The notes beneath the pieces are model-generated. The model was not told where the DNA came from, did not search any database, and saw only the letters and a program-made list of their open reading frames with translations. Position numbers and translations under genes: made by a program. Shown one piece after another: positions 3,629-46,506 of a DNA stretch of 64,000 nt; position 1 is the first letter of the stretch, and every line of letters starts with the position of its first letter. Location: the NCBI GenBank assembly GCA_015075625.1, contig JABTTZ010000001.1:2047021-2111020 (forward strand), read 5' to 3'. The DNA is from Anaerolineales bacterium (lineage in GTDB: Bacteria; Chloroflexota; Anaerolineae; Aggregatilineales; UBA2796).

Positions 3629-3763
3629 CTTACGCAGTTGAACTTATTTCCCCTGTATTCATCGAAAGGGGCAGGTTGAGGGGGCTTCCCCCTCAAACCC
3701 TCTTTTTCCCTTTCTCCCTCAGGGAGATGGGGGTAGGGGGATGAGGGCAAGTCCGTAACGCCT
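3629..3763 (-). repeat. RF1 MITE-like palindromic repeat, copy A (CTTACGCAGTTG terminal inverted repeats, internal GGTTGAGGGGGCTTCCCCCTCAAACC hairpin)
   Basis: Begins cttacgcagttgaac..., contains perfect GC hairpin at 3674-3699, ends ...gatgagggcaagtccgtaacg. Same modules as the copies at 39481, 40913 and 46026. Confidence 0.6.
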
Positions 3764-3821
3764 ATGAGGAGTCGGGAGGTTCCTTTTTTGCCCCATAATT
3801 TCCCATTTTATAAGAGGGAGA

Positions 3822-3850
3822 TTGCTTGGGTTAACCCAATGCCCTACAAT
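3822..3850 (+). promoter_or_regulatory. Sigma70-like promoter of the alkD-like gene (-35 TTGCTT, 17-bp spacer containing palindrome GGGTTAACCC, -10 TACAAT)
   Basis: ttgcttgggttaacccaatgccctacaat about 30 bp upstream of ATG 3880. SD GAGAGGCAAAGGG precedes the ATG. Confidence 0.5.
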
Positions 3851-3879
3851 AGAACAAATATACTGAGAGAGGCAAAGGG

Positions 3880-4608
3880 ATGAACACAGCGGAAATTATG
3901 GCAGCGTTGGAGGCGGCAGGGACGGCACAAAACCGAAAGATTGCCAAGCGGCATGGGGTAGATGATAACGTTTTTGGCGTGCTGCGCTCTGAGGTGAATA
4001 AACTGGTGAAGCAGATCAAGATCAACCATACGGCTGCGCTTGAACTGTGGGAAACTGGTAATTTTGATGCGCGGACGGTTGCCACGATGATTGCCGATCC
4101 ACAGAAAATAGACGAGGCGACGCTCACCCATTGGGGGGAGACAACACACGACTATGGGACGGCGGGAGAGGTTTCCAACATTATTGCCAAAACACCGTAC
4201 ATACGGGCGTTTATGGAGCGCTGGACAAACGATGAGGGGGAGTGGCTAGGGCGCATCGGATGGCTTTTGTTGTCGCACCTTGCCGCTGGGGATAACAGCC
4301 TGCCTGATTCGTTTTTCCTCCCCTATCTGGCAACCATTGAGGAGGGCATTCATACGGCGAAAAACCGCACCCGCGATGCGATGAACACTGCGCTAATCAG
4401 TATTGGGACGCGAAATGCCGCGTTAGAAGGACCCGCTTATGCTGCTGCCAAACGGATCGGGAGGGTTGAGGTCGATCACGGGCAGACAGACTGCGAAACG
4501 CCGCTGGCGATCCCGTATATGGATAGGATCAAGGCACACCGTGCCAAAAGAGCGGCAGAAAAAGAGGCGAAAAGCGCTGCGGCTAAAGCGACTAAGGGAA
4601 AGAAATAA
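3880..4608 (+). CDS. DNA alkylation repair enzyme (AlkC/AlkD-type HEAT-repeat DNA glycosylase family)
   Basis: N-terminus MNTAEIMAALEAAGTAQNRKIAKRHGVDDNVFGVLRSEVNKLVKQIKINHTAALELWETGNFDARTVATMIADP matches the DNA_alkylation family signature. Strong SD. Confidence 0.75.
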   Translation: MNTAEIMAALEAAGTAQNRKIAKRHGVDDNVFGVLRSEVNKLVKQIKINHTAALELWETGNFDARTVATMIADPQKIDEATLTHWGETTHDYGTAGEVSNIIAKTPYIRAFMERWTNDEGEWLGRIGWLLLSHLAAGDNSLPDSFFLPYLATIEEGIHTAKNRTRDAMNTALISIGTRNAALEGPAYAAAKRIGRVEVDHGQTDCETPLAIPYMDRIKAHRAKRAAEKEAKSAAAKATKGKK

Positions 4609-4750
4609 CCGACAAGCAGAGATCAGACGCCTTTTCCTTGCGGCGGGTTCAGGGTGGTGAGCGCAGCGTTGCCGCAAACCCTGTTTGTGGAGGTGGGGAT
4701 ACAAGCAGTACGCCTAAGTACAACCACAATGAGCAGGCGGCATGTCGCCT

Positions 4751-4815
4751 GATCCCGCCGCTAAAGCCGCGGACTGAAAGCAGCCACCCCTTCAGGGCTT
4801 GAAAGGCATAAGCGC
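4751..4815 (+). repeat. RF2 REP-like hairpin repeat (GATCCCGCCGCTAAAGC-GCGG-CTGAAAGCAGCCACCCCTTCAGGGCTTGAAAGGC)
   Basis: Near-identical copies at 55283 and 52776, related copies at 43777-43925 and 52930-52995. Contains GAAA- and UUCG-type tetraloop hairpins. Confidence 0.55.
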
Positions 4816-4993
4816 ACAGGGGGTTTCTGCTTTCTTCATCCCAAATGATTTTTGTGGCGGTACTTAGTCGTCCACCACACAGATACATAGAGATAGACTG
4901 ATCCAACAACCTCACCCCCTCCCCGTTTACGAAGAGGGGGAAGGGGTGGGGTTTTGAAATGATGTGTAATCAGACATTTACGAGGTAGTCCCA

Positions 4994-7900
4994 ATGACTC
5001 TTACATGGCGCGATTTTGTTCAACGCTGGACGGCGAGCGCCCTCGGTGAACAACAAGCCGCCCAAAGCCATTTCAACGAACTCTGCCGCTTAGTGGGGCA
5101 TAAAACACCCACCGAACTGGACCCACTGGGTGAATTTTTCACCTTTGAGGAACAAGTGACAAAGGCAACAGGTGGGCGGGGGCGGGCAGATGTCTGGTAC
5201 AAGGGGAAATTTGCTTGGGAATACAAGGGCAAGCACAAAGACTTAGATGCCGCCTATGCCCAACTGCTGGCATATAAGGGCAGTTTAGGCAACCCACCGC
5301 TGCTGATCGTTTCGGACATGGTGGAATACCGCATTTACCCCCAGTGGGTGAACACCAGCGGGCAGCCCTTCATCTTTCGCAATGCCGATTTGTTGTTTCC
5401 AGATGCACAGCGGTACATCGTATGGCTTTTGGAAGACCCAGACCGTTTTAAAGAACTGCGCGAAGATGAGCTTCGAGTACGCGAACAACTGACCACCAAG
5501 CTGGCGCAAGAATTCGCCCATCTCAGCGATTTGGTACGCAAACACCAAGACCCTAACGATCTTTGGAGTGACTATCACATTGCCCGTTTTTTTGCGCGGC
5601 TAACCTTTTGTTTGTTTGCCGAAGATGTTCAACTCATGCCGCGCCCCTTTGACCAACCTGTTTTTCGGTATCTTACCGATGGCGCACGCAACCTTCCCGA
5701 AGATTTTGTGGCAGAGATGACGCGCTTATTTATGGCGATGGATGGGCGTCAATCTGGCTTTGTGATGCGACACGTCCCCTATTTCAATGGGGGCTTGTTT
5801 AACGTCGATGACGATCCCGCCCACCTAGTTTTTGATTTGGCGAAAGATTCCGCCATGATCGATCTCTTAGAAAAGATCAGCAAGCGTGATTGGCGTAAGG
5901 TGAACCCGACCATCTTCGGCACACTCTTTGAGGCAGCCCTTGATCCGGCAAAGCGGGCGCAGTTGGGCGCTCACTATACCAGCGAGGCAGATATTCGCCT
6001 TGTTGTTGACCCTGTGTTGATGCAGCCACTTTACGACGAATGGGCGTTGACATTGGAGGAGGCTGAACCGCTCTTTCAAACCCTTTTTGATGGCGCTTCT
6101 CCCCGCCAAGAAGAGACCATTCGCGCTCGGCTGACCCTGCTTCATGACCGGATGATGTTTCGCCTTGAGACCACACAGATTCTTGATCCGGCGTGTGGGT
6201 CGGGAAACTTTCTCTATGTCAGCCTTCGGGCGCTGAAAGACCTTGAAGCACGAGTCCGCAAGACCTTTGAGCCACTTGGCTTGCCGTTTCGCGACGTTGT
6301 CACGCCGCGCCAACTCTACGGCATCGAGAAAGACCCCTATGCGGCGAACTTGGCGTTTGTCGTTATCTGGATTGGCTACTTACAATGGCGCTACGAAGAT
6401 CAGGGCGTGTTAAGTTTTAGAACACGGGTCAGCCGCCCCAACCCTCGGCATTTGCCACACCCCATTATCCAAGACAAATACCCGGACGAAACCATCGATC
6501 ACATCCTGTGCGAGGACGCCCTCTTGCGTTACGACGCGGAGGGCAAGCCCTATGAGCCGGAGTGGGTGGCGGTGGATGTGATCATGGGCAACCCGCCTTT
6601 TTTGGGGGGCAGCCGTCAACGCAGAGAGCTGGGCGGAGCTTACCTTGACGATCTCCAGAGGCTGTATCAAGGGCGGTTGGCAAGGGATAGCGATCTTGTC
6701 TGCTATTGGTTTGAGAAAGCACGCGCCCATCTAGACCAGGGAAAGGCTAAGCGGGTTGGGTTTATCGCCACCAATTCGATTCGGGGTGGTTCAAATCGCC
6801 TTGTCTTGGATCGCATCAAAGCGACGGGCGATATTTTCATGGCATGGAGCGATAATCCATGGCTCCTCGCCGGTGCAGCGGTGCGGATTTCGATTGTCGG
6901 CTTTGATAACAAGGTGCAGACAGCACGAATGCTCGATGGGGCAGTCGTCGAGAACATCCATGCCGATTTGACCGCTGGCGCTGATCTAACCGGGGCAAAG
7001 GTGCTGGCAGAAAACGCTCGCATTTGTTTTCGCAGTGACGAAAAAGGCGGATCGTTCGATATTGACGAGGCAACGGCAAGGGCGATGTTGGCGGCGAAAA
7101 ACCGCAGTGGAAAATCGAACGCCGATGTCGTGCGTCCGTACATCAATGGGCTTGATGTGACACGCGGCAGACGGAACAGGTGGGTCATCGATTTTGGCGT
7201 AGATACTACCGAAGCCGAAGCCGCCCACTACAAAATGCCCTATGAGTATGTGAAACGGATGGTGAAGCCCGAACGCGATATGGTGAACAACGAGCGCCAC
7301 CGTACCTATTGGTGGATTCACCGTATTCCTGCTGGTGATATGCGCGAGGCAATTCGACCTCTCAAGCGCTTTATCGCGACGCCTAGTGTGGCAAAACACC
7401 GCTTGTTTGTATGGGTCGAAGGCGGGATCATTCCCGATCATCAACTCTATGTCTTCGCCCGTGACGATGATTACTTCTTCGGCGTCCTCCACAGCTATAT
7501 TCATGAACTATGGTCGCTGCAGAAGGGAACATCCCTTGAAGATCGCCCTCGTTACACGCCCACAACAACCTTTGAGACCTTCCCGCTGCCTTACCCGCCG
7601 GGCAAAGAGGACACCGCATCGCCCCTCTATCAGGCGATCAGCACGGCGGCAAAGGCGCTCCACGAGGGGCGCGAGGCATGGCTGCATCCAGTGGAATTAG
7701 CGGAATTGGGGGCGACGGCAAAGGGCAAAGCGCTTTCCGAACGGACTCTGACAAATCTTTACAATGCGTTGGCAGTTCATCGCGCTGAGCCGTCCATGGG
7801 CAAGGGGAAGGGGGGGAACGGCAAAAACGGGGATAAACCCGTGAAGGCGGCAGCGCAATTCGCCCCCCAACTGGCAGCACTCCACGAAGCATTGGATAGG

Positions 7901-8020
7901 GCTGTATTGAGCGCTTACGGGTGGACTGATCTGGCTCTCACCGCCCGCACTCCGGCAGGGCAAGAAGCAATTTTACGGCGCTTGTTGGCGTTGAATCAAG
8001 CGCGAATATCGAAAGCGTAG
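4994..8020 (+). CDS. MmeI-family Type IIL restriction-modification enzyme (N-terminal PD-ExK nuclease + gamma-class N6-adenine methyltransferase + TRD in one polypeptide)
   Basis: D-X9-EYK nuclease motif (ADVWYKGKFAWEYKGK); FCLFAED and LGAHYTSEA blocks identical to MmeI; MTase motif I DPACGSGNFL and motif IV GNPPF; TNSI block; 1008 aa. Confidence 0.85.
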   Translation: MTLTWRDFVQRWTASALGEQQAAQSHFNELCRLVGHKTPTELDPLGEFFTFEEQVTKATGGRGRADVWYKGKFAWEYKGKHKDLDAAYAQLLAYKGSLGNPPLLIVSDMVEYRIYPQWVNTSGQPFIFRNADLLFPDAQRYIVWLLEDPDRFKELREDELRVREQLTTKLAQEFAHLSDLVRKHQDPNDLWSDYHIARFFARLTFCLFAEDVQLMPRPFDQPVFRYLTDGARNLPEDFVAEMTRLFMAMDGRQSGFVMRHVPYFNGGLFNVDDDPAHLVFDLAKDSAMIDLLEKISKRDWRKVNPTIFGTLFEAALDPAKRAQLGAHYTSEADIRLVVDPVLMQPLYDEWALTLEEAEPLFQTLFDGASPRQEETIRARLTLLHDRMMFRLETTQILDPACGSGNFLYVSLRALKDLEARVRKTFEPLGLPFRDVVTPRQLYGIEKDPYAANLAFVVIWIGYLQWRYEDQGVLSFRTRVSRPNPRHLPHPIIQDKYPDETIDHILCEDALLRYDAEGKPYEPEWVAVDVIMGNPPFLGGSRQRRELGGAYLDDLQRLYQGRLARDSDLVCYWFEKARAHLDQGKAKRVGFIATNSIRGGSNRLVLDRIKATGDIFMAWSDNPWLLAGAAVRISIVGFDNKVQTARMLDGAVVENIHADLTAGADLTGAKVLAENARICFRSDEKGGSFDIDEATARAMLAAKNRSGKSNADVVRPYINGLDVTRGRRNRWVIDFGVDTTEAEAAHYKMPYEYVKRMVKPERDMVNNERHRTYWWIHRIPAGDMREAIRPLKRFIATPSVAKHRLFVWVEGGIIPDHQLYVFARDDDYFFGVLHSYIHELWSLQKGTSLEDRPRYTPTTTFETFPLPYPPGKEDTASPLYQAISTAAKALHEGREAWLHPVELAELGATAKGKALSERTLTNLYNALAVHRAEPSMGKGKGGNGKNGDKPVKAAAQFAPQLAALHEALDRAVLSAYGWTDLALTARTPAGQEAILRRLLALNQARISKA

Positions 8021-8110
8021 CAGACACGTTTTTATGCCGCTCACCTTGCGTTCCCCTTCGTTACACTATAGAATCTCTCAAAAGACGCGGATAAACGGCG
8101 GCAATTCGGC

Positions 8111-9310
8111 ATGTCCACACGACGCTTTCCCGACGACAACGCCCCCTCTCCGGCTTCTCCCCCAGACCCAACACCCGGGAGCGGGACGGCGCTGCCTACC
8201 CGCCGTCCGGTGATGCCCGGACAAACACCGGGGACGCCCGTCAGCCGCGCTCCCAAACGGACGGGCAAGAGCATCCAGCATATGCCGCGCACACTTAGCC
8301 AAGTGCTGAACGATGCCAACGAACAGGTGGTGCGTGGCGACCTCAGCGAATATGTCCCTTTGCCAACAGGCTTTGATCCCCTTGATGGTTTGATCGGCGG
8401 CGGGCTGCGCAAAACAGAACTCGTCCTGCTTGGTGGGGCGCAAGGCATTGGCAAGACAATTGCCGCCGTCCAAATGGCGCGAAACATCGCCATGCGCCCT
8501 GATCAATATGTGTTCTACCTTTCCTACGAACACACCGAAACACACCTCATGAGCCGCTTGCTCTGTTTGGAGAGCATCAACCCGCCAGAGGTTGATCTGC
8601 GCAGCGGGCTGAAATTGAAAGATTTGTTCGATACGATCATCTCCCAACGGGCGCGGGAAATCTTGGGGCGCGATAACCGTGCCGAGTCCCTTCAAAGCAT
8701 TCTGCGGGAAAATCCGCGCACCTCGATGGCGCTGGCACGGCTCTCGAAGTATGCAGACCGTTTCATCATGGTCAAGGCAAGTCCGGCGGTGACGACCCTG
8801 AGCGCCATTCGAGAGATGACCGGACGGCTGGCAGAGGCGACGGGCGGCAACCTGACCGTCTTTGTCGATTATTTGCAGAAGATCGCCATTCATCCCGAAC
8901 GGGCGGCGGACGAGAACGACAAAGTGACCATTGTTGTGGAGGGGCTGAAGGATATTGCGCTCTCGTTGGGCGTCCCCGTCTTAAGCATCGTCGCCAGTGA
9001 TCGGGATGGCTTGCGGGCGAAGCGTCTGCACCTTTTTCATCTGCGGGGGAGTTCGGCGCTCGATTATGAGTGCGATATTGCGATCATCATGAACAACAAG
9101 TATCAGATTTTGGCGAAGGATCACATCGCTTTTAATCCCTATCAGGGCAAGCAGTTCCGCGATTGGGTCGTTTTTACGGTGGAGAAAAACCGCGCTGGGC
9201 GGGCGATGATGGATATGGAATTCCAACTGCACGCCCCCTACTTTGCCTTTGACCCACGCGGACAGCAAGTCCAACAAACGTTGATCGACGATAAGATCAT
9301 CGAATCCTGA
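8111..9310 (+). CDS. DnaB-like helicase C-terminal (RecA-fold) domain ATPase lacking DnaB N-terminal domain; Pro/Ser/Thr-rich disordered N-terminus
   Basis: TGFDPLDGLIGGGLRKTELVLLGGAQGIGKTIAAVQMARNIA (DnaB linker + Walker A), DYLQKI (Walker B, as DnaB IDYLQLM), LKDIALSLGVPVLSIVASDRDG. First about 90 aa are low complexity (PSPASPPDPTPGSG...). Confidence 0.7.
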   Translation: MSTRRFPDDNAPSPASPPDPTPGSGTALPTRRPVMPGQTPGTPVSRAPKRTGKSIQHMPRTLSQVLNDANEQVVRGDLSEYVPLPTGFDPLDGLIGGGLRKTELVLLGGAQGIGKTIAAVQMARNIAMRPDQYVFYLSYEHTETHLMSRLLCLESINPPEVDLRSGLKLKDLFDTIISQRAREILGRDNRAESLQSILRENPRTSMALARLSKYADRFIMVKASPAVTTLSAIREMTGRLAEATGGNLTVFVDYLQKIAIHPERAADENDKVTIVVEGLKDIALSLGVPVLSIVASDRDGLRAKRLHLFHLRGSSALDYECDIAIIMNNKYQILAKDHIAFNPYQGKQFRDWVVFTVEKNRAGRAMMDMEFQLHAPYFAFDPRGQQVQQTLIDDKIIES

Positions 9311-9311
9311 C

Positions 9312-10220
9312 TTGAGCGCCCCGATTCAGATCGTCACCGACAGCGCGGCACAGTTCCTTCTGCCCGGCTTTGCCGCCGATCAGGGAATTACGATTATTCC
9401 CTTAGAACTGGAATTAGGCGGCAGGCGCTACCGCGATGGCGTCGATATTGACGCTGAGATGATCGCCCGCCATGTGGCGGCAACGGGCGAAGCGCCGCGC
9501 CTGCTCCCCCCCAGTGTGGAAACCATTGCAGGGGTCTATGCCAACCTCTACCGTGAGTCGAATCGGATTCTCTCCGTTCACCTCTCGCGGGCGGTGCATC
9601 CCATGTGGGAAAAGGCGAAATCTGCCGCCGAAACGCTCTTGGGGCGCTGCGATATTGCCGTCTTTGATTCGCACAGCCTTGCCGCCGGACAGGGCTGGCT
9701 TACCGAGGCAGGGGTGCGCCTGACCCGTGAGACGAATTCCCTTGACGACACCGTGCGCGAACTGCGCAAGCTGATTCCCCATATTTACTCTATTTTTTGC
9801 AGCGAACGTCTCGATTACCTTTACCGTGCCGGACTCCTGTTGGAATCTCAAGCCGTTTTGGGGAATATGTTGGCAATCAAGCCGTTTCTCACCCTAGAGG
9901 ACGGTGAATTGGTCGTCATGGAGAAGGCGCGATCCAAGCCACAGGTTGTCGATAAGCTGATCGAATTCGTCACCGAATTTGCCGCCGTAGAACAGCTTGC
10001 CGTACTGCGTGGGGCATCCGCCGCGCCGGAGGTGATGCGCTCCCTTGCCGAGCGGATGCGAGAGGAATTCAGCCCAACGCCCTACCCCATCCTCACGGCG
10101 TCATCCGTGTTGGCATCTTTGCTTGGCACAGAGGCAATTGGGATCATGATTCTTGAGCGTGAATTAGGCAACCGCGGGGGGGATTATGACGATGACTTTG
10201 ACGGTGAGGATGATGAGTAG
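9312..10220 (+). CDS. DegV family (fatty-acid binding) protein
   Basis: IQIVTDSAAQFLLPGFAADQGITIIPLELELGGRRYRDGVDIDAEM matches the DegV/EDD fold N-terminus. TTG start 2 nt after the upstream stop; its stop is 2 nt before the next ATG. Confidence 0.75.
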   Translation: MSAPIQIVTDSAAQFLLPGFAADQGITIIPLELELGGRRYRDGVDIDAEMIARHVAATGEAPRLLPPSVETIAGVYANLYRESNRILSVHLSRAVHPMWEKAKSAAETLLGRCDIAVFDSHSLAAGQGWLTEAGVRLTRETNSLDDTVRELRKLIPHIYSIFCSERLDYLYRAGLLLESQAVLGNMLAIKPFLTLEDGELVVMEKARSKPQVVDKLIEFVTEFAAVEQLAVLRGASAAPEVMRSLAERMREEFSPTPYPILTASSVLASLLGTEAIGIMILERELGNRGGDYDDDFDGEDDE

Positions 10221-10222
10221 CC

Positions 10223-12430
10223 ATGTCCGATGTTCTCGAAGCACTGGTGGGGTATGTTCTGATTGCGGGCGGACGGGCGGTGAGCGCCCCTCCCCCCGGC
10301 GCCATTGTTGAACTACCGCCCCGCAAAACCCAGCGCGGACGGGAACAAGACACATTCTTCGCGCTCATCGTGCCAGCGGGCAAAACACACCAACCCGCCC
10401 CCTTTTATGAGGGGTTGGTGCGCTATGCCGCCGATCTCTACTTTCGGGCAGGGGGGAGCGTCACCAGCGGGCTGCGCGATGTGCTGAACGCAATCAACCA
10501 GCAGCTTTTGGATCACACCGCAAACACCGGAAATAAAGCTGAAATCGGCATGGCGGCGGTAGTCTTGCGCGGGGCGGAAATTTACCTAGCGAAGGCGGGC
10601 GCGACACTGTGCGCGCTAAAACAAACCGACGATTTCACCACCCTCCCCGCCGACCTCAGCGATGCCCTCAACAGCGACCCCTTTAATCTTGGCACAAGCA
10701 CACACCCCGATGTGCGGCTTGCCCGCTATGAGGTTGCCTCTGGCGATGCGCTCTGCCTTGCCGATCTGAACCTTGCCCGCATTGAGCCAGTAGCACTGGA
10801 AGCAGCCCTTGCCAAAGGCAATCTTCCCAATGTGATCGAGGGCATTAAGGCGCTTGCCCCTGCCCAAATCCAAGCGATGATTATCGAATTTGTCTCCACA
10901 GACACGCCCGATCCGGTGCTGCCGCCCTCGCGCCCGGTCAGCACGGCTGCCCCTAGCAGCGGCGTCCTCGTCACCAGCGTCAGCAAACCGCCCAAACGTC
11001 CCACAGGGACAATCCGTATTCCGCTCACCCCCTCAACGCCCGCCAAACAGACGCTCACCCTCCCCACTCAGGAAGGGACGGTGGAGGCATCAGAGGGAGA
11101 TGAGGACACAACACCCCCAACGGAGGGAGCGCCGACCCTTCTCTCGCGGATAGGCAGCGCGGCGGGGTGGTTTGGCGGTGGGCTCAGCCGTGCGGTGGAT
11201 CGGCTGCTGCCCGAACCAACAGAAGATGGGTCGCCGCGCCTTCCGGTCATGTTCGCCGCGGCGCTGGCAATTGCCGTCCCTGTGCTGATTGTCTTTGTGA
11301 TCGTTGCCCTGCGGCTCTCGCAGTTCGATATGACGCAATTTGAACAACAGGTGCAAGAGGTGTTGAAGGCAGCCGAACAGGCGCGGGTGATCGCCCTTGC
11401 TGATGTGCCAAATGCCCGCGCCGCATGGATGGAAGTGCTGCGTCGTGTGGAGGGCGTGGAAATTGCTTCCGGGCGGACGGGCGACCCTGAACTGCTGAAA
11501 GTACGCGCCGAAGCGCAAGGGATTCTCGATCAGTTTGACAAAGTGACGCGGCGAACGCCGGTTGCCCTGCGCAATTTTGGGACAGGCGCCGTGATGAGCG
11601 ATCCGATCATACGCGGCGGGGCGGATGTCTACACGCTGGATCGGGCGTCGAGCGCCATTTACCGCGACACCTTGAATCCGAACAGTGTCGCCCTCATCAC
11701 CCGCAACGCGCAGCCAGTGGTTCAACGGGGGCAGTCGGTGGGGGCGTTCTCCGTCCGCCAGATCATCGACATGGCGTGGGTCAGCGAGGGCGGCACACAG
11801 CGGGCAAACGTCCTCGCTGCGCTCGATACACAAGGGCTGCTGATCACCTACTCGCCTACCTTTGCTCCGGCAACGGCACAGCGCTTACCAGGGGCAGATT
11901 TATGGGGCGATCCGGTGGCGATGTATGTGTGGCGCGGCAACCTTTACCTGCTTGACCCAACGGAAAACCAGATTTGGCGCTATCGTCCGGTGGGGAATAG
12001 CTATCCCAACCCGCCAGAAACCTACTTTGAGCCGGATGATCGTCCCGACCTCTCGTTAGGTGTTGATCTCGCCATTGATACGGCGGGGAATGTCTATGTT
12101 TTGTTTGCCGATGGGCTGCTTGGCAAATACAATGGGGGGACGCCGCTGAAGTTCGTCTACACGGAAATGCCCGATGGCGGCGCTCCCCGCAGCGCAGCCG
12201 CGATGTTCCTTGACGCCGATTCCCCCCTTCCAGCAATTTATGTGGTCGATCCCAAAGATCAGTCCGTCTACCAAATCACCCTATCGGGGGCGTTTCGCTA
12301 TCGGTTTCGGGCGGCAGATGGGGCGATGTTCAGCGGGGTGACCAGCGTATTTGTGACGGGGAACACCGTTTATGTGGCGGCGGGGTCGGTTTTGTACTCA
12401 TTTTCCCTTAACGACCTGACGGGGGGGTAG
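10223..12430 (+). CDS. Single-pass membrane protein: N-terminal divergent PP2C-like domain, one TM helix, C-terminal beta-propeller-like repeats
   Basis: PP2C-like blocks ALIVPAGK (DGxGG position) and MAAVVLRGAEIYLAKAGATLCAL (GDSR block with Asp replaced); TM LPVMFAAALAIAVPVLIVFVIVAL; C-terminal NVYVLFADG / TVYVAAG repeat units. ATG coupled to DegV stop. Confidence 0.55.
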   Translation: MSDVLEALVGYVLIAGGRAVSAPPPGAIVELPPRKTQRGREQDTFFALIVPAGKTHQPAPFYEGLVRYAADLYFRAGGSVTSGLRDVLNAINQQLLDHTANTGNKAEIGMAAVVLRGAEIYLAKAGATLCALKQTDDFTTLPADLSDALNSDPFNLGTSTHPDVRLARYEVASGDALCLADLNLARIEPVALEAALAKGNLPNVIEGIKALAPAQIQAMIIEFVSTDTPDPVLPPSRPVSTAAPSSGVLVTSVSKPPKRPTGTIRIPLTPSTPAKQTLTLPTQEGTVEASEGDEDTTPPTEGAPTLLSRIGSAAGWFGGGLSRAVDRLLPEPTEDGSPRLPVMFAAALAIAVPVLIVFVIVALRLSQFDMTQFEQQVQEVLKAAEQARVIALADVPNARAAWMEVLRRVEGVEIASGRTGDPELLKVRAEAQGILDQFDKVTRRTPVALRNFGTGAVMSDPIIRGGADVYTLDRASSAIYRDTLNPNSVALITRNAQPVVQRGQSVGAFSVRQIIDMAWVSEGGTQRANVLAALDTQGLLITYSPTFAPATAQRLPGADLWGDPVAMYVWRGNLYLLDPTENQIWRYRPVGNSYPNPPETYFEPDDRPDLSLGVDLAIDTAGNVYVLFADGLLGKYNGGTPLKFVYTEMPDGGAPRSAAAMFLDADSPLPAIYVVDPKDQSVYQITLSGAFRYRFRAADGAMFSGVTSVFVTGNTVYVAAGSVLYSFSLNDLTGG

Positions 12431-12458
12431 GGCGGGGCTGCGCCCCACCCGCCCCCTA
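12423..12458. terminator. GC-rich imperfect hairpin between convergent genes (possible bidirectional terminator)
   Basis: gggggtagggcggggctgcgccccacccgccccctacagg between stop of 10223..12430 (+) and stop of GH9 (-). No clear T-tract. Confidence 0.3.
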
Positions 12459-12462
12459 CAGG

Positions 12463-14787: not shown

Positions 14788-14803
14788 CAGAAATACCTCC
14801 TAT

Positions 14804-15667: not shown

Positions 15668-15693
15668 CGAACAACCTCCAACCTTCTGCGCCT

Positions 15694-16647: not shown

Positions 16648-16774
16648 GCGAACCTTCCAGTGACCCAACGCCGCACGGTATGACAAAAGGTAGGTATGAT
16701 AGAGACAGGGCGACGACACGGGCATTGGGAAGCACCGCCAAGCGCTTGGTCCCAATGCCCGCCAGAAGAAAGGC

Positions 16775-23029: not shown

Positions 23030-23100
23030 CTGAGGGCGCATTTCTCCCCCCTTTCCCTGCCTACGGGGAAAGGCGACTGCTGCGCAGTAACCGGGGGGGG
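23030..23100. repeat. RF1-related fragment (CCCTTTCCCT-N-GGGAAAGGCGA hairpin + GGGGGGATAGAGGGGTTC module)
   Basis: Shares modules with 46419-46506 and 55540-55610. Confidence 0.4.
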
Positions 23101-35412: not shown

Positions 35413-35628
35413 ACGGATCGTTTAGCAGCGGGCGCACACAGACGCCGAACAGGATTCCCCCTACTTCCACAAGGAGGCGGGGCAGAGAGTGCGCGCGTCT
35501 TGCCCTGATCTCAGCCCCGTGCTTTAGCACGGGGGGAACACATTCAAGCCCCACCCTCCAATTTCCGTCAAGTCGCGGTACAATCTTTCCCCTGAATTGA
35601 AACCGTGAAGGAATCATTGAAACCCCTT

Positions 35629-36948: not shown

Positions 36949-36983
36949 ACTTTCCTGTGCGGCTTAAACGAGAAGGAGATTTT

Positions 36984-37673: not shown

Positions 37674-37689
37674 GCCGCCCGACGTGGCG

Positions 37690-39285: not shown

Positions 39286-39480
39286 AAGTGTAATAAAACT
39301 CCCTGTCCTGAATGACCGGTCAATGTTCGGTTGTGTTGATAGTGTAACCCCAGTGACCCCACCGCTAAAAGGCTTGTCTGGTAAGGAAAAGAAGGTATCG
39401 CCCATGGACACTCCAAGACAACAACGAAAGGATTGAACAATGGATAGGAATACCTTCTTCACCGAATTATAGGTGTAGAC

Positions 39481-39737
39481 GTTACACCGTTGCCCTCACC
39501 CCCTACCTCCTTCTCCCTCAGGGAGAAGGAGGAAAAGAGGTTTTGAGGGGCTTCCCCTCAAACATCCCCTTTGGATGAATACAGAGGAAACACGTTCAAC
39601 TGCGTAACTCACCTTACGCACAGACCCTCACCCCTAACCCCTCTCCCGCCACGCGGGAGAGGGGGAATGCACTTTTTTGAGGGGCCTCAAACTGCCCCTT
39701 TCGACGAATACGGGGTGAACAAACCCAACTGCGTAAG
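39481..39737 (+). repeat. RF1 MITE-like repeat, two tandem units (B1 39481-39607, B2 39608-39737)
   Basis: B1: gttacaccgttgccctcacc...ttttgaggggcttcccctcaaa...gttcaactgcgtaa. B2 flanked by 13-bp perfect TIR CTCACCTTACGCA...TGCGTAAGGTGAG with truncated TTTTTTGAGGGGCCTCAAA hairpin. Confidence 0.6.
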
Positions 39738-39859
39738 GTGAGCTGTGTAAGTCCTTCTATCGTATGGTTTTGTTGTGTCGTTCGATCACTACCATTCCTA
39801 AATTAACCATGCCACGCTTTATTGACACGGGCGACCACGTGGTCGCGCCCCTCCGAGGA

Positions 39860-40825
39860 TTATCCCCCCGCCGCCATCCTCTCGGTGGGAGTCATGAACT
39901 GCGCCCGCGCCCAATCGAACGTCTCCCGAATCGCCTGTGGGAAGGGTGTCGGTTTCAGACCAAAGGTGCGTTCCGCCTTCGCGCTGCTGATGATATACGG
40001 CTTCTCGAACTCGTACATCATCTCCACCGTCTCCCGCGCACCCGGGTTGAACAGCCCAAAGACGCTCATCATCAGGCGGTTGGCATAGCTCGCCTTCAGC
40101 GGCTTGCCCACCTCAGCGCTGATTAAGGTCAAGAACGCCTCTTGGGTAAGGGCGGGATTCGAGGGGGCGATCCATGCCTCCCCTAGCGCTTCCTCACGAG
40201 TCCCCAACGCTGCCAGCAATCGCCCGTAATCGGGGATATAGGTGAAGGTGTGGGGGACGTTCCCCTTGCCGAAGAACTGCACCCGCTTCCCCAAGAGCGC
40301 CGCCTTGTAGACCATCTCCGCGATCACGTCGTATTCCCCACCAAAGAAGGTGGAGGCACGTCCGATTGCCGCCCGCACTTCGCCGCGCCCGTGTGCCGCC
40401 ATAACCGCCGCCGCCATATCCCGCCGGATGATTCCCTTCTTCGAGATCGGCTTGATTGGGGACTCCTCGGTGATCGTCTGCCCACCGCCATCCCCGTACA
40501 GGTAGAGGTTATCCCCGACGATGAATTTTGCCCCGTTTGCCGCCGCCCCTTGCATAATCGAGGCTTGCAGCGCGGGGAATTTCCCTGCCCAGTCGTGGTA
40601 TTCCGGTTGGGCGCATTGGTAGATCGTCTCCGCATGGCGGGTGATCTGGATCACCGCTGTCGGATTGTAAGCATCCGCCGCCACAACCTCAACCTCGGCG
40701 GGCATCCCCGCCAGTTTCCCGCTGCGGTTGACCATCCGCACTTGTTTTCCCATGCCGATCAATGCCCGCGCCGTGTTCTTTCCTAGCGGTCCCGTCCCAA
40801 AAACGATGTGTAGCGTGCCAGCCAT
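39860..40825 (-). CDS. NAD(P)-dependent epimerase/dehydratase (SDR/NmrA-like)
   Basis: MAGTLHIVFGTGPLGKNTARAL Rossmann motif; SD AAGGA. Confidence 0.75.
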   Translation of the reverse strand: MAGTLHIVFGTGPLGKNTARALIGMGKQVRMVNRSGKLAGMPAEVEVVAADAYNPTAVIQITRHAETIYQCAQPEYHDWAGKFPALQASIMQGAAANGAKFIVGDNLYLYGDGGGQTITEESPIKPISKKGIIRRDMAAAVMAAHGRGEVRAAIGRASTFFGGEYDVIAEMVYKAALLGKRVQFFGKGNVPHTFTYIPDYGRLLAALGTREEALGEAWIAPSNPALTQEAFLTLISAEVGKPLKASYANRLMMSVFGLFNPGARETVEMMYEFEKPYIISSAKAERTFGLKPTPFPQAIRETFDWARAQFMTPTERMAAGG

Positions 40826-40912
40826 TGGTTACTGTCCTTTGTTTTCTCTGTTACGCTGCTTACTGTGTAGGTGTTCACGAGTCGCTCGTCAACAAGATAC
40901 GAAGAATCTCGC

Positions 40913-41037
40913 CTTATACAGTTGGATTTATTTCCCCTGTGTTTTGGCAAAGGGGCAGCTTGAGGGGGAAGCCCCCTCAAAACTAGGATTCCCCCTCTCC
41001 CCTTGTGAGGGTTAGGGAGTGAGGGCAACTGCGTAAT
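40913..41037 (-). repeat. RF1 MITE-like repeat, copy C
   Basis: cttatacagttgg...cttgagggggaagccccctcaaaac...gtgagggcaactgcgtaa; same orientation and modules as copy A. Confidence 0.6.
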
Positions 41038-41082
41038 CTCTGTAAGGATTAGTCCCCTTCACAAGCCCACTCCCTACATGCC

Positions 41083-41814
41083 CTATTCGTTGTCCCGCAC
41101 GATAATCCCGAAGGATTGGATCATGAAGCGCATTTGGGTGTCAAAATGGTGTGCCGTGTTCGCCACCACCCCTTGCAAATGGTTCAAGACCTCTAGGGTG
41201 ATCAGCCCGTGCATCTGACTCCAGCCGACAATGCCCAAGTAAAACGCCATGTCCGAAACCGGCTCGGCGTCTGGTTCGGCGGCGGCGTAATCTTGCCGCA
41301 GTTGGGCAATGCGCCCCGTCAGCGCCTGCGGCACGCGATCATAAGGGGGCTGCGGCTGATACCGTTCGGTCTTTAGCACATCCTCGATGGTGCGGATGAT
41401 CACCGCGAAGCCCCGCGCCACCGCCGGCACCGTCACCTCACGCGGGGCGACATAACCCGGAATCGGATTCCCATAGATCAACTGAAAATCCATTGGGTGA
41501 TCCACCGCCCATTGGCGGTATGCCCGCAGCACCCCCCGCAGGCGGAGGACGGGCGTTTCCTTCTTCATCTGTGCCGCCGCCGCCAGCGCATCGGAGAGCG
41601 CCGTAAAATCCTCAACAATCAGGGCGGTGATCAGATCGTCCACACTGTGAACGTAGGTGTAGAGTGCGGGGGGCGTCACCGCTAGTCTCTTGGCAATCCC
41701 CCGAATGGTGACTCCCGCTGTCCCTTTCTCTACCATCAGGGCGCGGGCGGCTTGCTTAATCGTGATGCTCATCGTTTCATGGGCAGCATCGCTGCGAACA
41801 CGGGGCATAACCAA
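41083..41814 (-). CDS. TetR/AcrR family transcriptional regulator
   Basis: HTH region AARALMVEKGTAGVTIRGIAKRLAVTPPALYTYV; SD AGGAAGGG. Confidence 0.8.
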   Translation of the reverse strand: MVMPRVRSDAAHETMSITIKQAARALMVEKGTAGVTIRGIAKRLAVTPPALYTYVHSVDDLITALIVEDFTALSDALAAAAQMKKETPVLRLRGVLRAYRQWAVDHPMDFQLIYGNPIPGYVAPREVTVPAVARGFAVIIRTIEDVLKTERYQPQPPYDRVPQALTGRIAQLRQDYAAAEPDAEPVSDMAFYLGIVGWSQMHGLITLEVLNHLQGVVANTAHHFDTQMRFMIQSFGIIVRDNE

Positions 41815-41842
41815 CCCTTCCTTTCGTTTCCTTTACGGCGTT

Positions 41843-41900
41843 AACTTTACACCGTTAACTTTTAAATAACTTTACACCGTTAACTTAACAATGTAAAGCG
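41843..41900. promoter_or_regulatory. Direct repeat 2x AACTTTACACCGTTAAC (25-bp period) plus CTTTACA-N-TGTAAAG inverted repeat; candidate TetR operator in the TetR/mutase divergent promoter region
   Basis: ttaactttacaccgttaacttttaaataactttacaccgttaacttaacaatgtaaagcg between the divergent TetR (41814) and mutase (42066) starts. Confidence 0.45.
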
Positions 41901-42065
41901 AATGATTGTTAGAGAATTGTCTATACAGTCAAAAAGGGTGTTAAAGGCACGGTGTTGGGGTGAGGCGTGGTTTTGTTGACGGGCTGTGTCATAATTTGTG
42001 CATCACGCACAAACAAGACCATGCCCAATCACTGCCCGATCATTTTTTGATAAGGAGCGCCTTTT

Positions 42066-43748
42066 ATGTACGACGCGAAACGCTTAGAAGAACTTGAATC
42101 CGCCCTTGATTCGTGGGAGCGGGAGACGCTCCAACCGACACTGGGGAAAATGCCCGAACGCCGGAAAACGTTCATCACAACGAGCGGCAAGGCGATCAAG
42201 CGGCTCTACACACCTGCCGATCTGGGCGAATTCGACTACCTGCGCGATCTCGGTCTGCCCGGCGAGTATCCCTACACGCGGGGCGTCCATGCGACGGGGC
42301 ATCGGGGCAAGCTGTGGACGATGCGCATGTTTGCCGGCTTTGGCACGGCGGAGGAGACAAACGCCCGCTACAAGTACCTGCTCTCGCAAGGGAATATGGG
42401 GCTTTCCGTCGCCTTTGACCTACCCACCCTGATGGGCTACGACTCGGATGCGCCAGAAGCGCTAGGCGAGTTTGGGAAATGCGGCGTTGCCGTTGCCTCG
42501 CTGCGGGATATGGAGCGCCTTTTCGAGGGGATTCCTCTTGGAGAGATCAGCACAAGCATGACGATCAATAGTCCCGCCGCCGTGATCTGGGCGTTTTACA
42601 TTGCCGCCGCCGAAAAACAGGGCGTCCCCATGTCTGCGCTGCGGGGGACGCTCCAAAACGACATTTTGAAGGAATACATCGCCCAAAAGGAATACATCTT
42701 CCCGCCAGAACCGTCGATGCGCCTTGTCACCGATACGATTGAGTTTGGGGCAAAGCATATGCCGCTGTGGAACACGATCAGCATCAGCGGGTATCACATT
42801 CGGGAGGCAGGTAGCACAGCCATTCAGGAGCTTGCTTTCACCCTTGCCGATGGCATTGAGTATGTGAAGTGGGCGCGGCAGCGGGGACTGGAGATTGACG
42901 ACTTCGCCCCGCGCCTGTCATTTTTCTTCAACGTTCACAACGATTTCTTTGAGGAGATCGCTAAGCTGCGGGCGGCGCGGCGTATTTGGGCGCGGGAGAT
43001 GCGCGAGACGTTCGGGGCAAAAGACCCCCGCTCGTGGCTGATGCGCTTCCACTGTCAAACGGCGGGAGTCAGCCTGACGGCGCAGCAGCCGGAGATCAAC
43101 ATCGTGCGGGTGGCGATTCAGGCGTTGGGGGCTGTCCTCGGCGGGGCGCAGTCGCTCCACACGAACAGCATGGACGAGGCGCTGGCGCTGCCGAGCGAAA
43201 AAGCGGTGACGATTGCCCTCCGCACGCAGCAGATTATCGCTGCCGAAAGTGGCGTGACGAACACACTTGACCCGCTCGGAGGATCCTACTTCCTAGAGAC
43301 ACTGACGAACGAGACGGAAGCTGCTGTGTACGATTACTTCCGTCGCATTGAGGCGTATGGGGGGCTGCTGCCGGCGCTGGATGCCGGATTTATGCAGCAA
43401 GAGATCGCTGACGCCGCCTTCCGCTATCAACGGGAGATGGAAGCGGGCGAACAGATCATGATCGGGGTGAATCAGTACGCGGAGACGAACGGAAAGATTG
43501 ACATTCCGATTTTGGTGATGGACCCGAAGGGATATGAGAAGCAGGCGGCGGGCTTAGCCGAACTGCGCCAGACGCGGGACAACGAGAAGGTTGGAACGGC
43601 GCTGAGCGCCCTCCACGCGGCGGCGGGGGGGACGGAAAACCTGATGCCACACCTCTTAGACTGCGCCCGCGCCTATTGCACCCTTCAAGAGATCATGGAC
43701 GTGCTGCGGGTGCAGTTCGGACTCCATGTGGAAAAAGAGGTGCTGTAG
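42066..43748 (+). CDS. Acyl-CoA mutase large subunit, catalytic (substrate-binding TIM barrel) domain only (methylmalonyl-/isobutyryl-CoA mutase family)
   Basis: [64 protein letters not shown]; 560 aa with no C-terminal B12-binding domain; SD AAGGAG. Confidence 0.85.
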
Positions 43749-43776
43749 GGGGCAATAGCAGATGCCTAGACAAAGC

Positions 43777-43925
43777 GGACGCCCCAAGAGGGCGTCCCTA
43801 CGGGGATGCGGGGAGGCACGGGGCTAAAGCCTGCGTGCTGAAAGCAGATTTTGGGTCTTTCCCTGCTTTCAGCCCCGTCCTTTAGGGCGGGACGGTCAAT
43901 CCTAACCGTCCGGCGCAAACCCGGG
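43777..43925. repeat. Hairpin-dense intergenic block with two RF2-related units in inverted orientation between convergent genes
   Basis: Successive perfect stems: GACGCCC-caagag-GGCGTC; GGGCTAAAGCC; GCTGAAAGCAG and its inverted partner CCCTGCTTTCAGCCCC; GGACGG-tcaatcctaa-CCGTCC. Confidence 0.5.
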
Positions 43926-43941
43926 CGCATACAATGCGCCC

Positions 43942-45972
43942 CTACTTTGAGTCTGGCTCTGCCGTTCCACCGGGCGTGCCGACACCGCTTTCCGGTTTGC
44001 GGGCAAGATTTTGCATGATGTCGTCGCGCAGGCGCTTGATTTCCTCTGGCATTTGCCCGCCGTTTTGGGTAGGGGTAACGCCCAAGTTTAGTTTTTCGGA
44101 GAGCAAGAGCATCATCAGCCCTTCAAAGGCGCTGTATGAGCCGCCCTGCCCGTTCGTGCCGCCGCCGCCATTGCCGACGACCATGCGCGGCACGATGTCC
44201 ACGCCGGAGGTCTCCACCGCTTGGGCGAACCGATCAATCGATTCCTGCAAAACTTGGTACTGCGGTCCGCCATAGGCACGGACTTGTTCTTCGATGGCAA
44301 GGGCTTTGGCAATACCGATACGCGCCTCGCGCTCTGCCTCTGCCTCTGCCAGCGCCTTGATCTTCGCCGCATCTTGGAGCGAACGTTGGTAAGCCGCCTT
44401 CCCGACGTTGCTTTCGACGTTGATGTTGATTTGCGATTCGGTCAGCGCCGTTTGCGATTTCGCCACCGATTCTGCCTCACGCAGTTCGCGCTCTTTTTCG
44501 GCGGCAGTCTGCTTGCGGCTGTAGGTTTCAACCTGCTCAATGGCGATCTGGCGATCCCGCAGTTGGGCGAGGATTTCCTCGATTTTGCGGTCTTGCGCCG
44601 AGGACGAGGGCGTGCCGATCAGAACTTCCTCCAATTCGAGGTTGTAATGCTCAAAGCGTTCCTTCATTTCCTCGGAGGACTGCTTCTGGATTTGCGAACG
44701 CTCTTGGATCAGTTGGATCAGCGTGCGTGTTTGCCCAATGTTCTTGAAGTAGGCGGCAACCATGGGGTCAAGCGTTTGCTCGACAAGACGCTTGATGTCG
44801 CCAAAGCGCTGGATGACGAGGGGCGCTTTGCGGTAGTCGATATGCATGACGACGGAGAGGGGCAGCAGCGGTTCAAAAGCATCTTTGGTGATCAGTTCAA
44901 TGGCGGAGAGGTTCTCATCGAAGCGGTGAGAGCCAATTTCGTCCCTGTTCCATTTGAGGATGATGTTTGTGGTGGGGACGGTGATCACCTTACCGGCATA
45001 GGTGTTGAAGGCATATTTGCCCGGCATAAGTGCCTCACTCCAAACACCTTTTTGCCCCCGTGCCACCATCTCACCGTGTTTGTATTCCTCACCGGAGAGG
45101 TCGCCGCCGCGTTCGCCAATGTAGGAAACGACAACGCCCACATAGCCGACTTCGATGGTTGTTTTATCAATCATCTCAACGGTAGCGAACAAGCGGTTGA
45201 TGTAATACGTGCCTTCGACAAGGGTATGGTATTGGCGTCCGCGCCGCCCGCCCGCTTTGAGGAACTTTTCGGTGTCTTGGAAGTTGTTGTGATAGGTGGC
45301 TGGTTGTGCCGGATCGTTGCCGACGGTGGGAGCGATGATCTCCTCTTGATCAAGGGAGGGTCCGTCATGAACGGTGACAATGCCCACTTTGTCATCCGAG
45401 CCGCGAATGACGACGGGGCGAAAGCCATCACGCTCTTGGATGAGCGCCGCCATACGCTTGAACACGGCTTCTTCATCGCGGCTGATGGGCAGGTAATAAA
45501 TGCCCTCTTGGGTGAAGACGATGAACTGGACGAGGTTAAGGGCATACGTCCCTTCACGGAGGATTTCCCGCTGCGGTCCGCGCTGCCCGCTGCCGCGTAG
45601 GAATGCCTCCATATTTTGGAAGGTTTTTGCCTCTGGGACGACATTTGCCAGTGTTTGGGTGGGCGCCATCGGCACACCGTCACGGGCAAACACGTAGCCA
45701 ATTTGCCCCTGGGGGATGGTCACCAGCGGGGCGAGATGGACTTTGTATTGGAAGGGCATCAGCCAGCGCAGACCGCCGCGCAAGACTTCGGGTTGATAGC
45801 CGGCTTCTTTGTTGAGCGCGATGAAACTATCCGATTTCACCGAGCCTTTGGTGGCAAAACGTTTTTCGACAATCCCCACCTTGTTGTTGGGGACATAACG
45901 AATACCCATCAACACGAAGATGAGTATGGCAAGAATAATCAGTGGGACGACAATTGCAACGAGGGCGCCCAT
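43942..45972 (-). CDS. Flotillin-like SPFH/band-7 protein (YqiK/FloA-like) with long coiled-coil and Gly-rich C-terminal extension
   Basis: N-terminal TM MGALVAIVVPLIILAILIFVLMG, SPFH-domain blocks, long EA-rich coiled coil. ORF track extends to 46017. Confidence 0.8.
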   Translation of the reverse strand: MGALVAIVVPLIILAILIFVLMGIRYVPNNKVGIVEKRFATKGSVKSDSFIALNKEAGYQPEVLRGGLRWLMPFQYKVHLAPLVTIPQGQIGYVFARDGVPMAPTQTLANVVPEAKTFQNMEAFLRGSGQRGPQREILREGTYALNLVQFIVFTQEGIYYLPISRDEEAVFKRMAALIQERDGFRPVVIRGSDDKVGIVTVHDGPSLDQEEIIAPTVGNDPAQPATYHNNFQDTEKFLKAGGRRGRQYHTLVEGTYYINRLFATVEMIDKTTIEVGYVGVVVSYIGERGGDLSGEEYKHGEMVARGQKGVWSEALMPGKYAFNTYAGKVITVPTTNIILKWNRDEIGSHRFDENLSAIELITKDAFEPLLPLSVVMHIDYRKAPLVIQRFGDIKRLVEQTLDPMVAAYFKNIGQTRTLIQLIQERSQIQKQSSEEMKERFEHYNLELEEVLIGTPSSSAQDRKIEEILAQLRDRQIAIEQVETYSRKQTAAEKERELREAESVAKSQTALTESQININVESNVGKAAYQRSLQDAAKIKALAEAEAEREARIGIAKALAIEEQVRAYGGPQYQVLQESIDRFAQAVETSGVDIVPRMVVGNGGGGTNGQGGSYSAFEGLMMLLLSEKLNLGVTPTQNGGQMPEEIKRLRDDIMQNLARKPESGVGTPGGTAEPDSK

Positions 45973-46025
45973 AAATTGCCTAAATCCCTTTCTTATGCTC
46001 AGGGGTGAGCATGACATAGGTAGAC

Positions 46026-46506
46026 GTTACACAGTTGCCCTTATCCCCCTGCCTCCCTCTGCCTCCCTCTGCCTCCCTTCTCCCAGTGGGAGAAGGAGGA
46101 ATCCATTGTTTGAGGGGGAAGCCCCCTCAAACTTCCCCTTTCGATGAATACAGGGTAAACAGGCGCAACTGCGTAAGCCGTAATAGGATCACACCAATGA
46201 ATCGTACACCCGATCAGAGATTAAGATATACCCCCAATGGTTAGGGGGGAAGAACATCTCCTAGTTCACCAGAAAAATTTCTAACTCACTCACCTTACGC
46301 ACAGCCCCTCACCCCCTCGCCCGTGTAGTGGGGGATTCTCTTTGGGAGGGGTGCTGCCCCTCCCCACCCTTTTATACAGCTAATCTCAGGGAGAATCACA
46401 TTGTTTGCGTAAGGTGAGCTTATCCCCCCGCCCCTTTCCCTATAGACAGGGAAAGGCGAGAAATTCTGCGGGCGAGGAGGATGAGGGCAACTGCGCAACG
46501 TCTGTG
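46026..46506 (+). repeat. RF1 repeat array: unit D1 46026-46176 (canonical), D2 46286-46418 (variant with GGAGGGGTGCTGCCCCTCC hairpin, 16-bp TIR), D3 46419-46506 (CCCTTTCCCT...GGGAAAGG module)
   Basis: D1 gttacacagttgccc...tttgagggggaagccccctcaaac...gcgcaactgcgtaag. D2 ctcaccttacgcacag...ttgtttgcgtaaggtgagc. D3 ends gagggcaactgcgcaac. Confidence 0.6.

Follow-up and report, generated by a model that had tools for sequence, protein, structure and literature searches.

The 64,000-nucleotide stretch of contig JABTTZ010000001.1 (assembly GCA_015075625.1, positions 2,047,021 to 2,111,020; here called the window) from an uncultured Aggregatilineales bacterium contains a family of short palindromic repeats, designated RF1. 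The RF1 units would appear to be MITEs (miniature inverted-repeat transposable elements) of the ISMesi2/IS701 type, and a DDE transposase of that clade would mobilize them in trans; a probability of about 0.88 is given to this reading. Of the features by which MITEs are recognized, the following are present: the units are short and non-coding, end in terminal inverted repeats, are flanked by duplications of constant length and occur in multiple dispersed copies. As a kind of element RF1 is ordinary, found here in a new host, and its signature of ends and duplication is already known from a widespread insertion sequence (IS). A non-autonomous mobile element had been suspected in the initial annotation of the window; target-site duplications and an autonomous IS type that matches now support the suggestion.

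Terminal repeats and target-site duplications

By an end-anchored search, intact units were found to be exactly 141 bp long, except for one of 162 bp, and to carry at both ends the 17-bp inverted repeat TAGRMSTTACGCAGTTG, which may also be given as TAGAACTTACGCAGTTG. The terminal repeat proposed initially, CTTACGCAGTTG, is present and represents the inner 12 nt of these 17. Sizes of RF1 units ranged from 130 to 162 bp, and no open reading frame of at least 100 amino acids lies inside them. The unit boundary was fixed independently by a contig from another sample, which matches one flank and the entire unit of the copy at tRNA-Leu and diverges exactly after ...GTAAC(A/G)TCTA.

Target-site duplications were looked for, and perfect 5-bp direct repeats abut three of the four intact units, as follows (L numbers denote sequences other than the window; L092 is its right-hand extension):

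Window, around 46021–46182: ATAGG, perfect 5-bp duplication
L092, around 9310–9450: CCACA, perfect 5-bp duplication
L001, around 11331–11471: TCACT, perfect 5-bp duplication

With a chance expectation of 1/1024 for each perfect 5-mer, three out of four cannot plausibly be coincidental. A TA duplication of the IS630 or Correia type was considered and rejected; the TA belongs to the ends of the element, and the true duplication is the adjacent 5 bp. Miniature elements derived from Tn3 (TIMEs) are also non-autonomous and create a 5-bp target duplication. Tn3-family ends are about 38 bp long and begin with GGGG, and this reading was dropped on the end sequence, since RF1 ends are 17 bp long and begin with TAG. 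The two copies which are most alike, at separate loci, are 96% identical, which points to a fairly recent spread.

The probable partner insertion sequence

When viral contigs were scanned for the 17-mer, 22 matches were obtained, most of them due to chance. In two of them the 3' end of a gene comes after the 17-mer; the gene codes for a 333-amino acid protein, which scored 405 bits (cut-off 250) with the NCBIfam model NF049921, transpos_IS701_2 (IS701 family transposase), and also matched the Pfam families DDE_Tnp_1 and DDE_5. The protein is Mesil_3485 of Allomeiothermus silvanus DSM 9946, named "IS701-like element ISMesi2 family transposase" by the Prokaryotic Genome Annotation Pipeline (PGAP). 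A full copy of ISMesi2 (1092 bp) is present on A. silvanus pMESIL01 at positions 159076–160167, with the ends TAGGACTTACGCAGTTG and TAGGAGTTACGCAGTTG and the duplication AGCCT; the stop codon of its transposase is a TAA within the end. Unit 3624 of the window has a left end which agrees with the ISMesi2 end at 17 of 17 positions. Three further IS copies, with transposases of 56–83% identity, have the same ends and 5-bp duplications:

Metagenome contig, uncultured organism: IS copy with duplication ACAGT
Gloeocapsa PCC 7428, CAGGAGTTACGCAGTTG: IS copy with duplication ATGCT
Methanosarcina barkeri plasmid: IS copy with duplication ATGGT

The duplication was thus seen in four of five IS copies (AGCCT, ACAGT, ATGCT and ATGGT); the copy in L142 is without it. 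In the four IS copies, which stem from one metagenome and from Deinococcota, Cyanobacteriota and Archaea, the ends are TAGGA(C/G)TTACGCAGTTG, and RF1 ends are identical to this in 15–17 of 17 positions. At the tips, TAGAAC or TAGACG prevails in RF1, as compared with TAGGAC or TAGGAG in the IS. In summary of this comparison, RF1 and the ISMesi2 clade have in common the 17-bp terminal inverted repeat (T/C)AGGA(C/G)TTACGCAGTTG and the 5-bp target-site duplication, whereas the IS are 1.05–1.14 kb long and encode a DDE transposase of 331–343 amino acids and RF1 is a non-coding element of 141 bp. Transposases of the NF049921 type form a large family (6959 proteins at E ≤1e-30). The top homologues stem from Meiothermus, hot-spring Synechococcus and actinobacterial and archaeal metagenome-assembled genomes (MAGs), and the contigs concerned often measure about 1.1 kb; among the top 120, none could be tied to the source genome of the window.

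As a mechanism it may be envisaged that a DDE transposase of the ISMesi2 clade, whose gene is located elsewhere in the genome or was present at one time, binds both ends of a unit and moves it into staggered cuts 5 bp apart, whose repair would yield the duplication. Mobilization of the units in trans by such a transposase in this host is inferred from the identity of the ends. Units should then build up in intergenic DNA, insert beside or into one another and act as substrates for recombination.

Several observations weigh against the assignment to the ISMesi2 type. The flanks of unit 3624–3764 show an imperfect 6-bp match (TGGGGA/TGAGGA). At unit 40908 and at both units of the subtype termed type I (see below) a duplication is not recognizable, and the tips of these three units differ from those of the IS. 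Neither the window nor about 26 kb of extra sequence of the same organism encodes an ISMesi2-type transposase. Local alignments of RF1, with the 17-bp ends left aside, to three IS copies were near the shuffle background, apart from one G-rich match of 12 nt; since the sequence inside the ends is not convincingly similar, RF1 is not a simple deletion derivative of the IS copies examined. A true empty site is not available, the ortholog of the nearest relative being only 63% identical.

RF1 units in the window

Seven units are present at four intergenic loci of the window (3624–3764, 39476–39759, 40908–41042 and 46021–46504), together with short fragments. Beyond the end of the window, at a distance of about 23 bp and directly after tRNA-Leu, an eighth unit is present, so that about 80 kb of the same organism contain eight units at five loci. 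The initial annotation had given at least nine units at five loci for the window; the family proved to be real, with units at all four main loci within about 5 nt of where they had been placed, and the count has to be lowered. A profile was built with nhmmer from the seven hand-cut units and the window was searched with it; all seven were found again (E from 1e-43 to 9e-13), and the remaining matches were weak fragments. Repeat detection joined 3624–3731, 39523–39610, 40910–40996 and 46075–46182 at 71–81% identity and in both orientations, and a 26-nt module pattern matched four times in the window and not at all in 100 shuffles. RF1 makes up about 2% of the window. The features are:

3624–3764, plus strand: intact type II unit, 141 bp; left end TAGGACTTACGCAGTTG at 3624–3640, right end CAAGTCCGTAACGCCTA at 3748–3764
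39476–39607, minus strand: type II unit; right-end repeat TAGACGTTACACCGTTG at 39476–39492, left end broken at ...CAACTGCGTAA (39607)
39608–39742, minus strand: type I unit with 16-bp inverted ends CTCACCTTACGCASAG / CTSTGCGTAAGGTGAG (profile match)
39743–39759, minus strand: displaced outer tip of the left terminal repeat of unit 39476–39607, CTGTGTAAGTCCTTCTA (direct reading)
40908–41042, plus strand: degenerate unit; left tip type I-like, CTCGCCTTATACAGTTG, right end type II-like, CAACTGCGTAATCTCTG
46016–46020: left copy of the target-site duplication ATAGG of unit 46021–46182
46021–46182, minus strand: intact type II unit, 162 bp; ends TAGACGTTACACAGTTG and CAACTGCGTAAGCCGTA
46183–46187: right copy of the target-site duplication ATAGG of unit 46021–46182
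46289–46418, minus strand: divergent type I unit, CTCACCTTACGCACAG ... TTGCGTAAGGTGAG; duplication not recognizable
46419–46504, plus strand: right half of a type II unit, with hairpin, G-rich tail and then GATGAGGGCAACTGCGCAACGTCTG; abuts type I unit 46289–46418
52825–52896, minus strand: internal RF1 fragment without terminal repeats, GCCCTCACCCCCTAGCCCCCTCCCCCGCAAGGGGAGGGGGAATCCAT (weak profile match)
55430–55607: two weak module-level fragments, CCCTCATCCCC and GC hairpins
4898–4967: weak module-level fragment, CCTCACCCCCTCCCC..GGGGGAAGGGGTGGGG
23030–23100: very weak module-level fragment, CCCCTTTCCC..GGGGAAAGG hairpin (profile match 23030–23091)

Unit 46021–46182 owes its 162 bp to a tandem expansion of GGGAGGCAGAG, by which 21 bp are added to the 141 bp. 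Relatives at the level of modules had been proposed at 23030–23100 and 55430–55610; they were detected as weak fragment matches (E 0.009–0.16), and those at 52825–52896 and 4898–4967 are likewise weak. Fragments of this kind may be regarded as decayed copies, probably so in the case of 55430–55607; membership of 23030–23100 in RF1 is doubtful.

Interior and folding

The alignment of the units gave the 141-bp consensus TAGAACTTACGCAGTTGAACTTGTTTACCCTGTATTCATCGAAAGGGGAAGTTTGAGGGGGA(AG)CCCCCTCAAAAAATGGATTCCCCCTTCTCCCACTGGGAGAAGGGGGGTAGGGGGATGAGGGCAACTGCGTAACGTCTA, and the modules described initially are shared by the four main loci. The interior of a standard unit consists of hairpins rich in GC and of the G-rich tail GGGAGAAGGGGGGTAGGGGGATGAGGG. 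The initial description of a perfect GC hairpin, TTGAGGGGG-loop-CCCCCTCAA, was confirmed, as were the two states of its loop, CTT and AAG in the orientation of the unit. The flipped loops would be the by-product to be expected from template switching or recombination at the perfect palindrome and would not represent a functional switch. In the type I unit of the window, the central palindrome at 39677–39692 reads TTTGAGGCCCCTCAAA; in four other assemblies of this locus it is intact, TTTGAGGGGGAAGCCCCCTCAAA. Either a deletion of the centre or an error of assembly or polishing could be responsible.

As a single strand, a unit forms a long stem, which the terminal repeats close and which contains two to three internal hairpins, and these folds are more stable than those of shuffled sequences (z from −1.8 to −6.6). 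This raises the question of a functional structured RNA or cis-regulator, e.g., an mRNA stabilizer, an attenuator or a G-quadruplex/hairpin switch, which would be kept for the benefit of the host, with mobility being secondary. Such a role would be in keeping with a canonical G-quadruplex motif which, in four of five intact units as well as in a relative from Pseudanabaena (see below), overlaps hairpin 3 at its 3' arm, with the position of all four loci upstream of at least one gene start, and with an internal architecture common to two phyla. Yet any element with inverted repeats is expected to fold stably, the covariation term in the unit alignment is negligible (−0.25 kcal/mol), with compensatory changes concentrated at the terminal repeats, and the units occur in both orientations relative to neighboring genes. 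A scan for promoter-like and terminator-like sites revealed no excess in the units. In the Rfam search, tRNA-Leu alone reached the gathering score and no family was found for RF1; sub-threshold matches over the units, obtained with permissive thresholds, were to eukaryotic microRNA models (E ≥0.005). A structured RNA as the primary nature of RF1 is therefore considered very unlikely, and exaptation of individual copies is conceivable.

Subtypes and mosaic loci

Two of the units (39608–39742 and 46289–46418) are of type I, with the tips CTCACCTTACGCASAG ... CTSTGCGTAAGGTGAG, i.e., CTCACC...GGTGAG. Between the subtypes both tips change together, as would be expected for ends recognized by a transposase. 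By direct reading, type I unit 39608–39742 sits inside the left terminal repeat of unit 39476–39607, in the context ...CAACTG-CGTAA-[type I unit]-TGTAA-GTCCTTCTA; excision of the insert restores a normal end, and the unit thus appears to be nested in its neighbor. Other assemblies part from the window exactly at the GGTGAG boundary of this unit.

One may ask whether type I represents a MITE family of its own, served by a different transposase and having just a 9-nt core in common with type II. The identical 16-bp inverted ends of both copies, the joint change of both tips, the divergence of strain assemblies precisely at GGTGAG and the apparent nesting of one copy in a type II end would agree with this. 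The interior of type I is nevertheless clearly homologous to that of type II (hairpins 1–3 and G-rich tail), no duplication of its own is recognizable, and a scan of the viral contigs with the type I end produced unpaired chance matches only. A separate family is a tentative alternative, with the odds somewhat against it.

At locus 46021–46504, unit 46021–46182 represents a separate insertion and has a duplication of its own; next to it lies a type I unit, adjoined by the right half of a further unit. Clustered, nested and mosaic loci of this kind can be explained by repeated insertion and recombination between copies. Mixed clusters with mosaic modules are also known from repetitive extragenic palindromes (REP) and the bacterial interspersed mosaic elements (BIMEs) formed by them, which are intergenic, GC-rich and palindromic like RF1. 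A REP is a single stem-loop of 20–40 bp with a GTAG/CGTC tetranucleotide tag, has a REP-associated tyrosine transposase (RAYT) as partner and leaves no target duplication (PMC3733652). If RF1 were of this type, its hairpin-rich units, in both orientations, would have spread as single-stranded hairpins by a RAYT, a transposase of the IS200/IS605 type. In some right ends the opposite strand reads GTAGACG, reminiscent of the GTAG tag (PMC3733652), but this GTAG is not followed directly by a stem-loop of 20–40 bp and is not conserved, since ATAG and TTAG occur as well. The unit length of 141 bp, the 17-bp terminal repeats, the perfect 5-bp direct repeats around intact units and the ends, which equal those of an IS701-family element of the DDE type, do not fit a REP, and a RAYT gene was not seen. 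This origin is hardly credible. Both alternatives named in the initial annotation, REP-like and structured RNA, thus find no support, on the same three counts, namely the missing Rfam match, the 5-bp duplications and the ends typical of an IS with a DDE transposase. A reading as integron attC sites was dropped on orientation and arrangement.

In L001 (11233–20966), L007 (2222–2443) and L011 (1–2104) the assemblies switch to a different sequence exactly at the boundary of an RF1 unit. On one side, before the switch, they are 99–100% identical to the window (L001, L007) or to its extension L092 (L011). Recombination between copies or chimeric assembly at repeats could be the cause in each case.

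Small relatives in cyanobacteria and elsewhere

A BLAST search of plasmids with whole units showed that the right-hand module of RF1, and then its ends, recur in cyanobacteria; MITE-like relatives were obtained there, all cyanobacterial, and no partner IS. The best example is a 151-bp element on a plasmid of Pseudanabaena sp. ABRG5-3 (NZ_AP017561.1, 120366–120516), with related copies on other Pseudanabaena plasmids; no description of it was found in the literature. Its ends, TAGGACTTACGCAG ... TGCGTAAGTCCTA, match those of RF1, it has a 5-bp duplication (ATTTA), and its colinearity with RF1 (z about 16 versus shuffles) includes the hairpin CCCCTTCTCCC-loop-GGGAGAAGGGG and the tail GGGGATGAGGGCAA. 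It differs in its left interior, which is a second CCCTCACCCC-plus-hairpin module instead of the RF1 hairpins 1 and 2, and in the phylum of its host, Cyanobacteriota. Shorter AT-rich elements with the same ends were present in Pseudanabaena galeata and Nostoc edaphicum, where the 5-bp duplications are AGATT and TTATT. The viral contigs contained two small elements with paired ends and duplications of 5–6 bp, one of 72 bp flanked by AACAAC and one on a circular contig flanked by AGTGA; the cyanobacterial end variant TAGGACTTACGCAAAAG had no match in them.

From these relatives a more far-reaching picture may be drawn: the element itself, and not only its transposase, would have crossed between Cyanobacteriota and Chloroflexota, its interior would be conserved for function, and type I would reflect a second transposase specificity. 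The conserved interior would then be the GC hairpin with the GGGAGAAGGGG..GGGGATGAGGG tail, which can form a hairpin or G-quadruplex; it might serve as a subterminal binding site for the transposase or a host factor, or as a structural switch acting on neighboring genes. Taken jointly, these propositions seem improbable.

Nezha, a MITE of Anabaena and Nostoc (Zhou et al. 2008), invites comparison with the RF1 units as MITEs of the ISMesi2 type. It is non-coding, 130–170 bp long and strongly folding, and its terminal inverted repeats are shared with ISNpu3 (PMC3184786); its direct repeat was reported as 10 bp, CATTATCTAC (PMC6042816). RF1 is similar in size, lack of coding capacity, strong folding and the sharing of terminal inverted repeats with an IS. 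It is set apart, as far as the descriptions go, by a direct repeat of 5 bp instead of 10 bp and by another partner IS.

Modules consisting of GCCCTCATCCCC plus a hairpin, without terminal repeats, occur at 15–19 places per plasmid in Pseudanabaena galeata (NZ_CP112876.1; L101, 21946–26811) and on other Pseudanabaena plasmids. Some of them are situated inside very long coding sequences of bacteriophage exclusion (BREX) loci ("DUF559 domain-containing protein", "DNA methyltransferase"), possibly as in-frame insertions or due to mis-annotation. Similar short modules were matched in replicons of Cupriavidus, Azospirillum and Methylobacterium.

Genomic context and distribution

As noted initially, the copies are intergenic and in both orientations, and no transposase is encoded in the window. 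Flanking genes are of the housekeeping type and code for NrdR, an alkylation-repair protein, an MmeI-type restriction enzyme, sugar ABC transport, an amidohydrolase and an epimerase; further neighbors are TetR, methylmalonyl-CoA mutase, a Band 7 protein, CarA and others. The window opens within the gene for a ribonucleotide reductase of 2168 amino acids, next to nrdR, as seen from L104 (1852–8358), which runs into window positions 1–2237; this gene has several intein/LAGLIDADG insertions.

The sequence of the window was found at 99.9–100% identity in many metagenome assemblies and in the MAGs GCA_035440525.1 and GCA_021463245.1, and all assemblies of the organism carry RF1 copies. Relatives are distant: the best one for the mutase among species-representative genomes is 73% identical (Aggregatilineales SYSU G02658), and the best one anywhere for the epimerase is 63% identical. 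Since no close relative has been sequenced, a classical comparison of empty and filled sites is ruled out. In the closest other organism (L114; epimerase 63% identical, which is too distant) the spacer between TetR and epimerase is without a unit; degenerate RF1-like ends (AAGAGGTTACGCACTTGCCCTC..., TAGGACTCACACAGTTGAAC...) were noticed at L114 7825–7867, 9588–9654 and 9788–9821, and the contig ends inside one of them. Eighty methylmalonyl-CoA mutase loci of other species contained no RF1. The exact module pattern had no match in 185,579 species-representative genomes, a collection which does not include the source genome, and one in metagenome contigs, and a literature search for the end sequences retrieved only primers. 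The view that RF1 is specific to its lineage can thus be maintained for the exact interior; it does not hold for the ends, which belong to an IS clade spanning domains, nor in view of the colinear relative on a cyanobacterial plasmid.

RF1 opens no new biological question. Its identification gives a name and a proposed mechanism to about 2% of the window and, probably, to hundreds of sites in the uncultured Aggregatilineales genome, and accounts for the breaking and rearranging of short-read assemblies of this organism at RF1 sites. It also ties a highly conserved IS701-family clade (Deinococcota, Cyanobacteriota, Chloroflexota and Archaea) to non-autonomous passengers. The signature TAGGASTTACGCAGTTG plus a 5-bp duplication should be usable for annotating similar elements elsewhere.

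Other repeats nearby

A second repeat family, RF2, is represented at window positions 4713–4878, 55247–55401 and 52778–52830, and also at L001 18793–18888 and L092 4041–4096. Its conserved core, TGATCCCGCCGCTAAAGCAGCGGGCTGAAAACAGCCACCCCTTCGGGGCTTGAAAG, forms two hairpins and is enclosed by CCTAAGTAC...GTACTTAG in three copies; no match to it was found in Rfam. In every copy a CCCTCAYCCCC-plus-GC-hairpin fragment, resembling the right part of RF1, follows within about 30–100 nt. The RF2 copy at 4713 is located upstream of the MmeI-type gene. In assembly ERZ27309505, window positions 53066–52794 are repeated straight after 52615 (window 52615–53066 compared with L092 20410–21134), i.e., a tandem duplication polymorphism of about 450 bp exists around the RF2/RF1 fragment.

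Another stretch of 170 bp, just upstream of tRNA-Leu (window 63690–63859), likewise had no Rfam match. It is 90% identical to L001 16308–16478, which is situated upstream of a molybdopterin oxidoreductase gene. At 63803–63838 many short-read contigs stop, as at a repeat.

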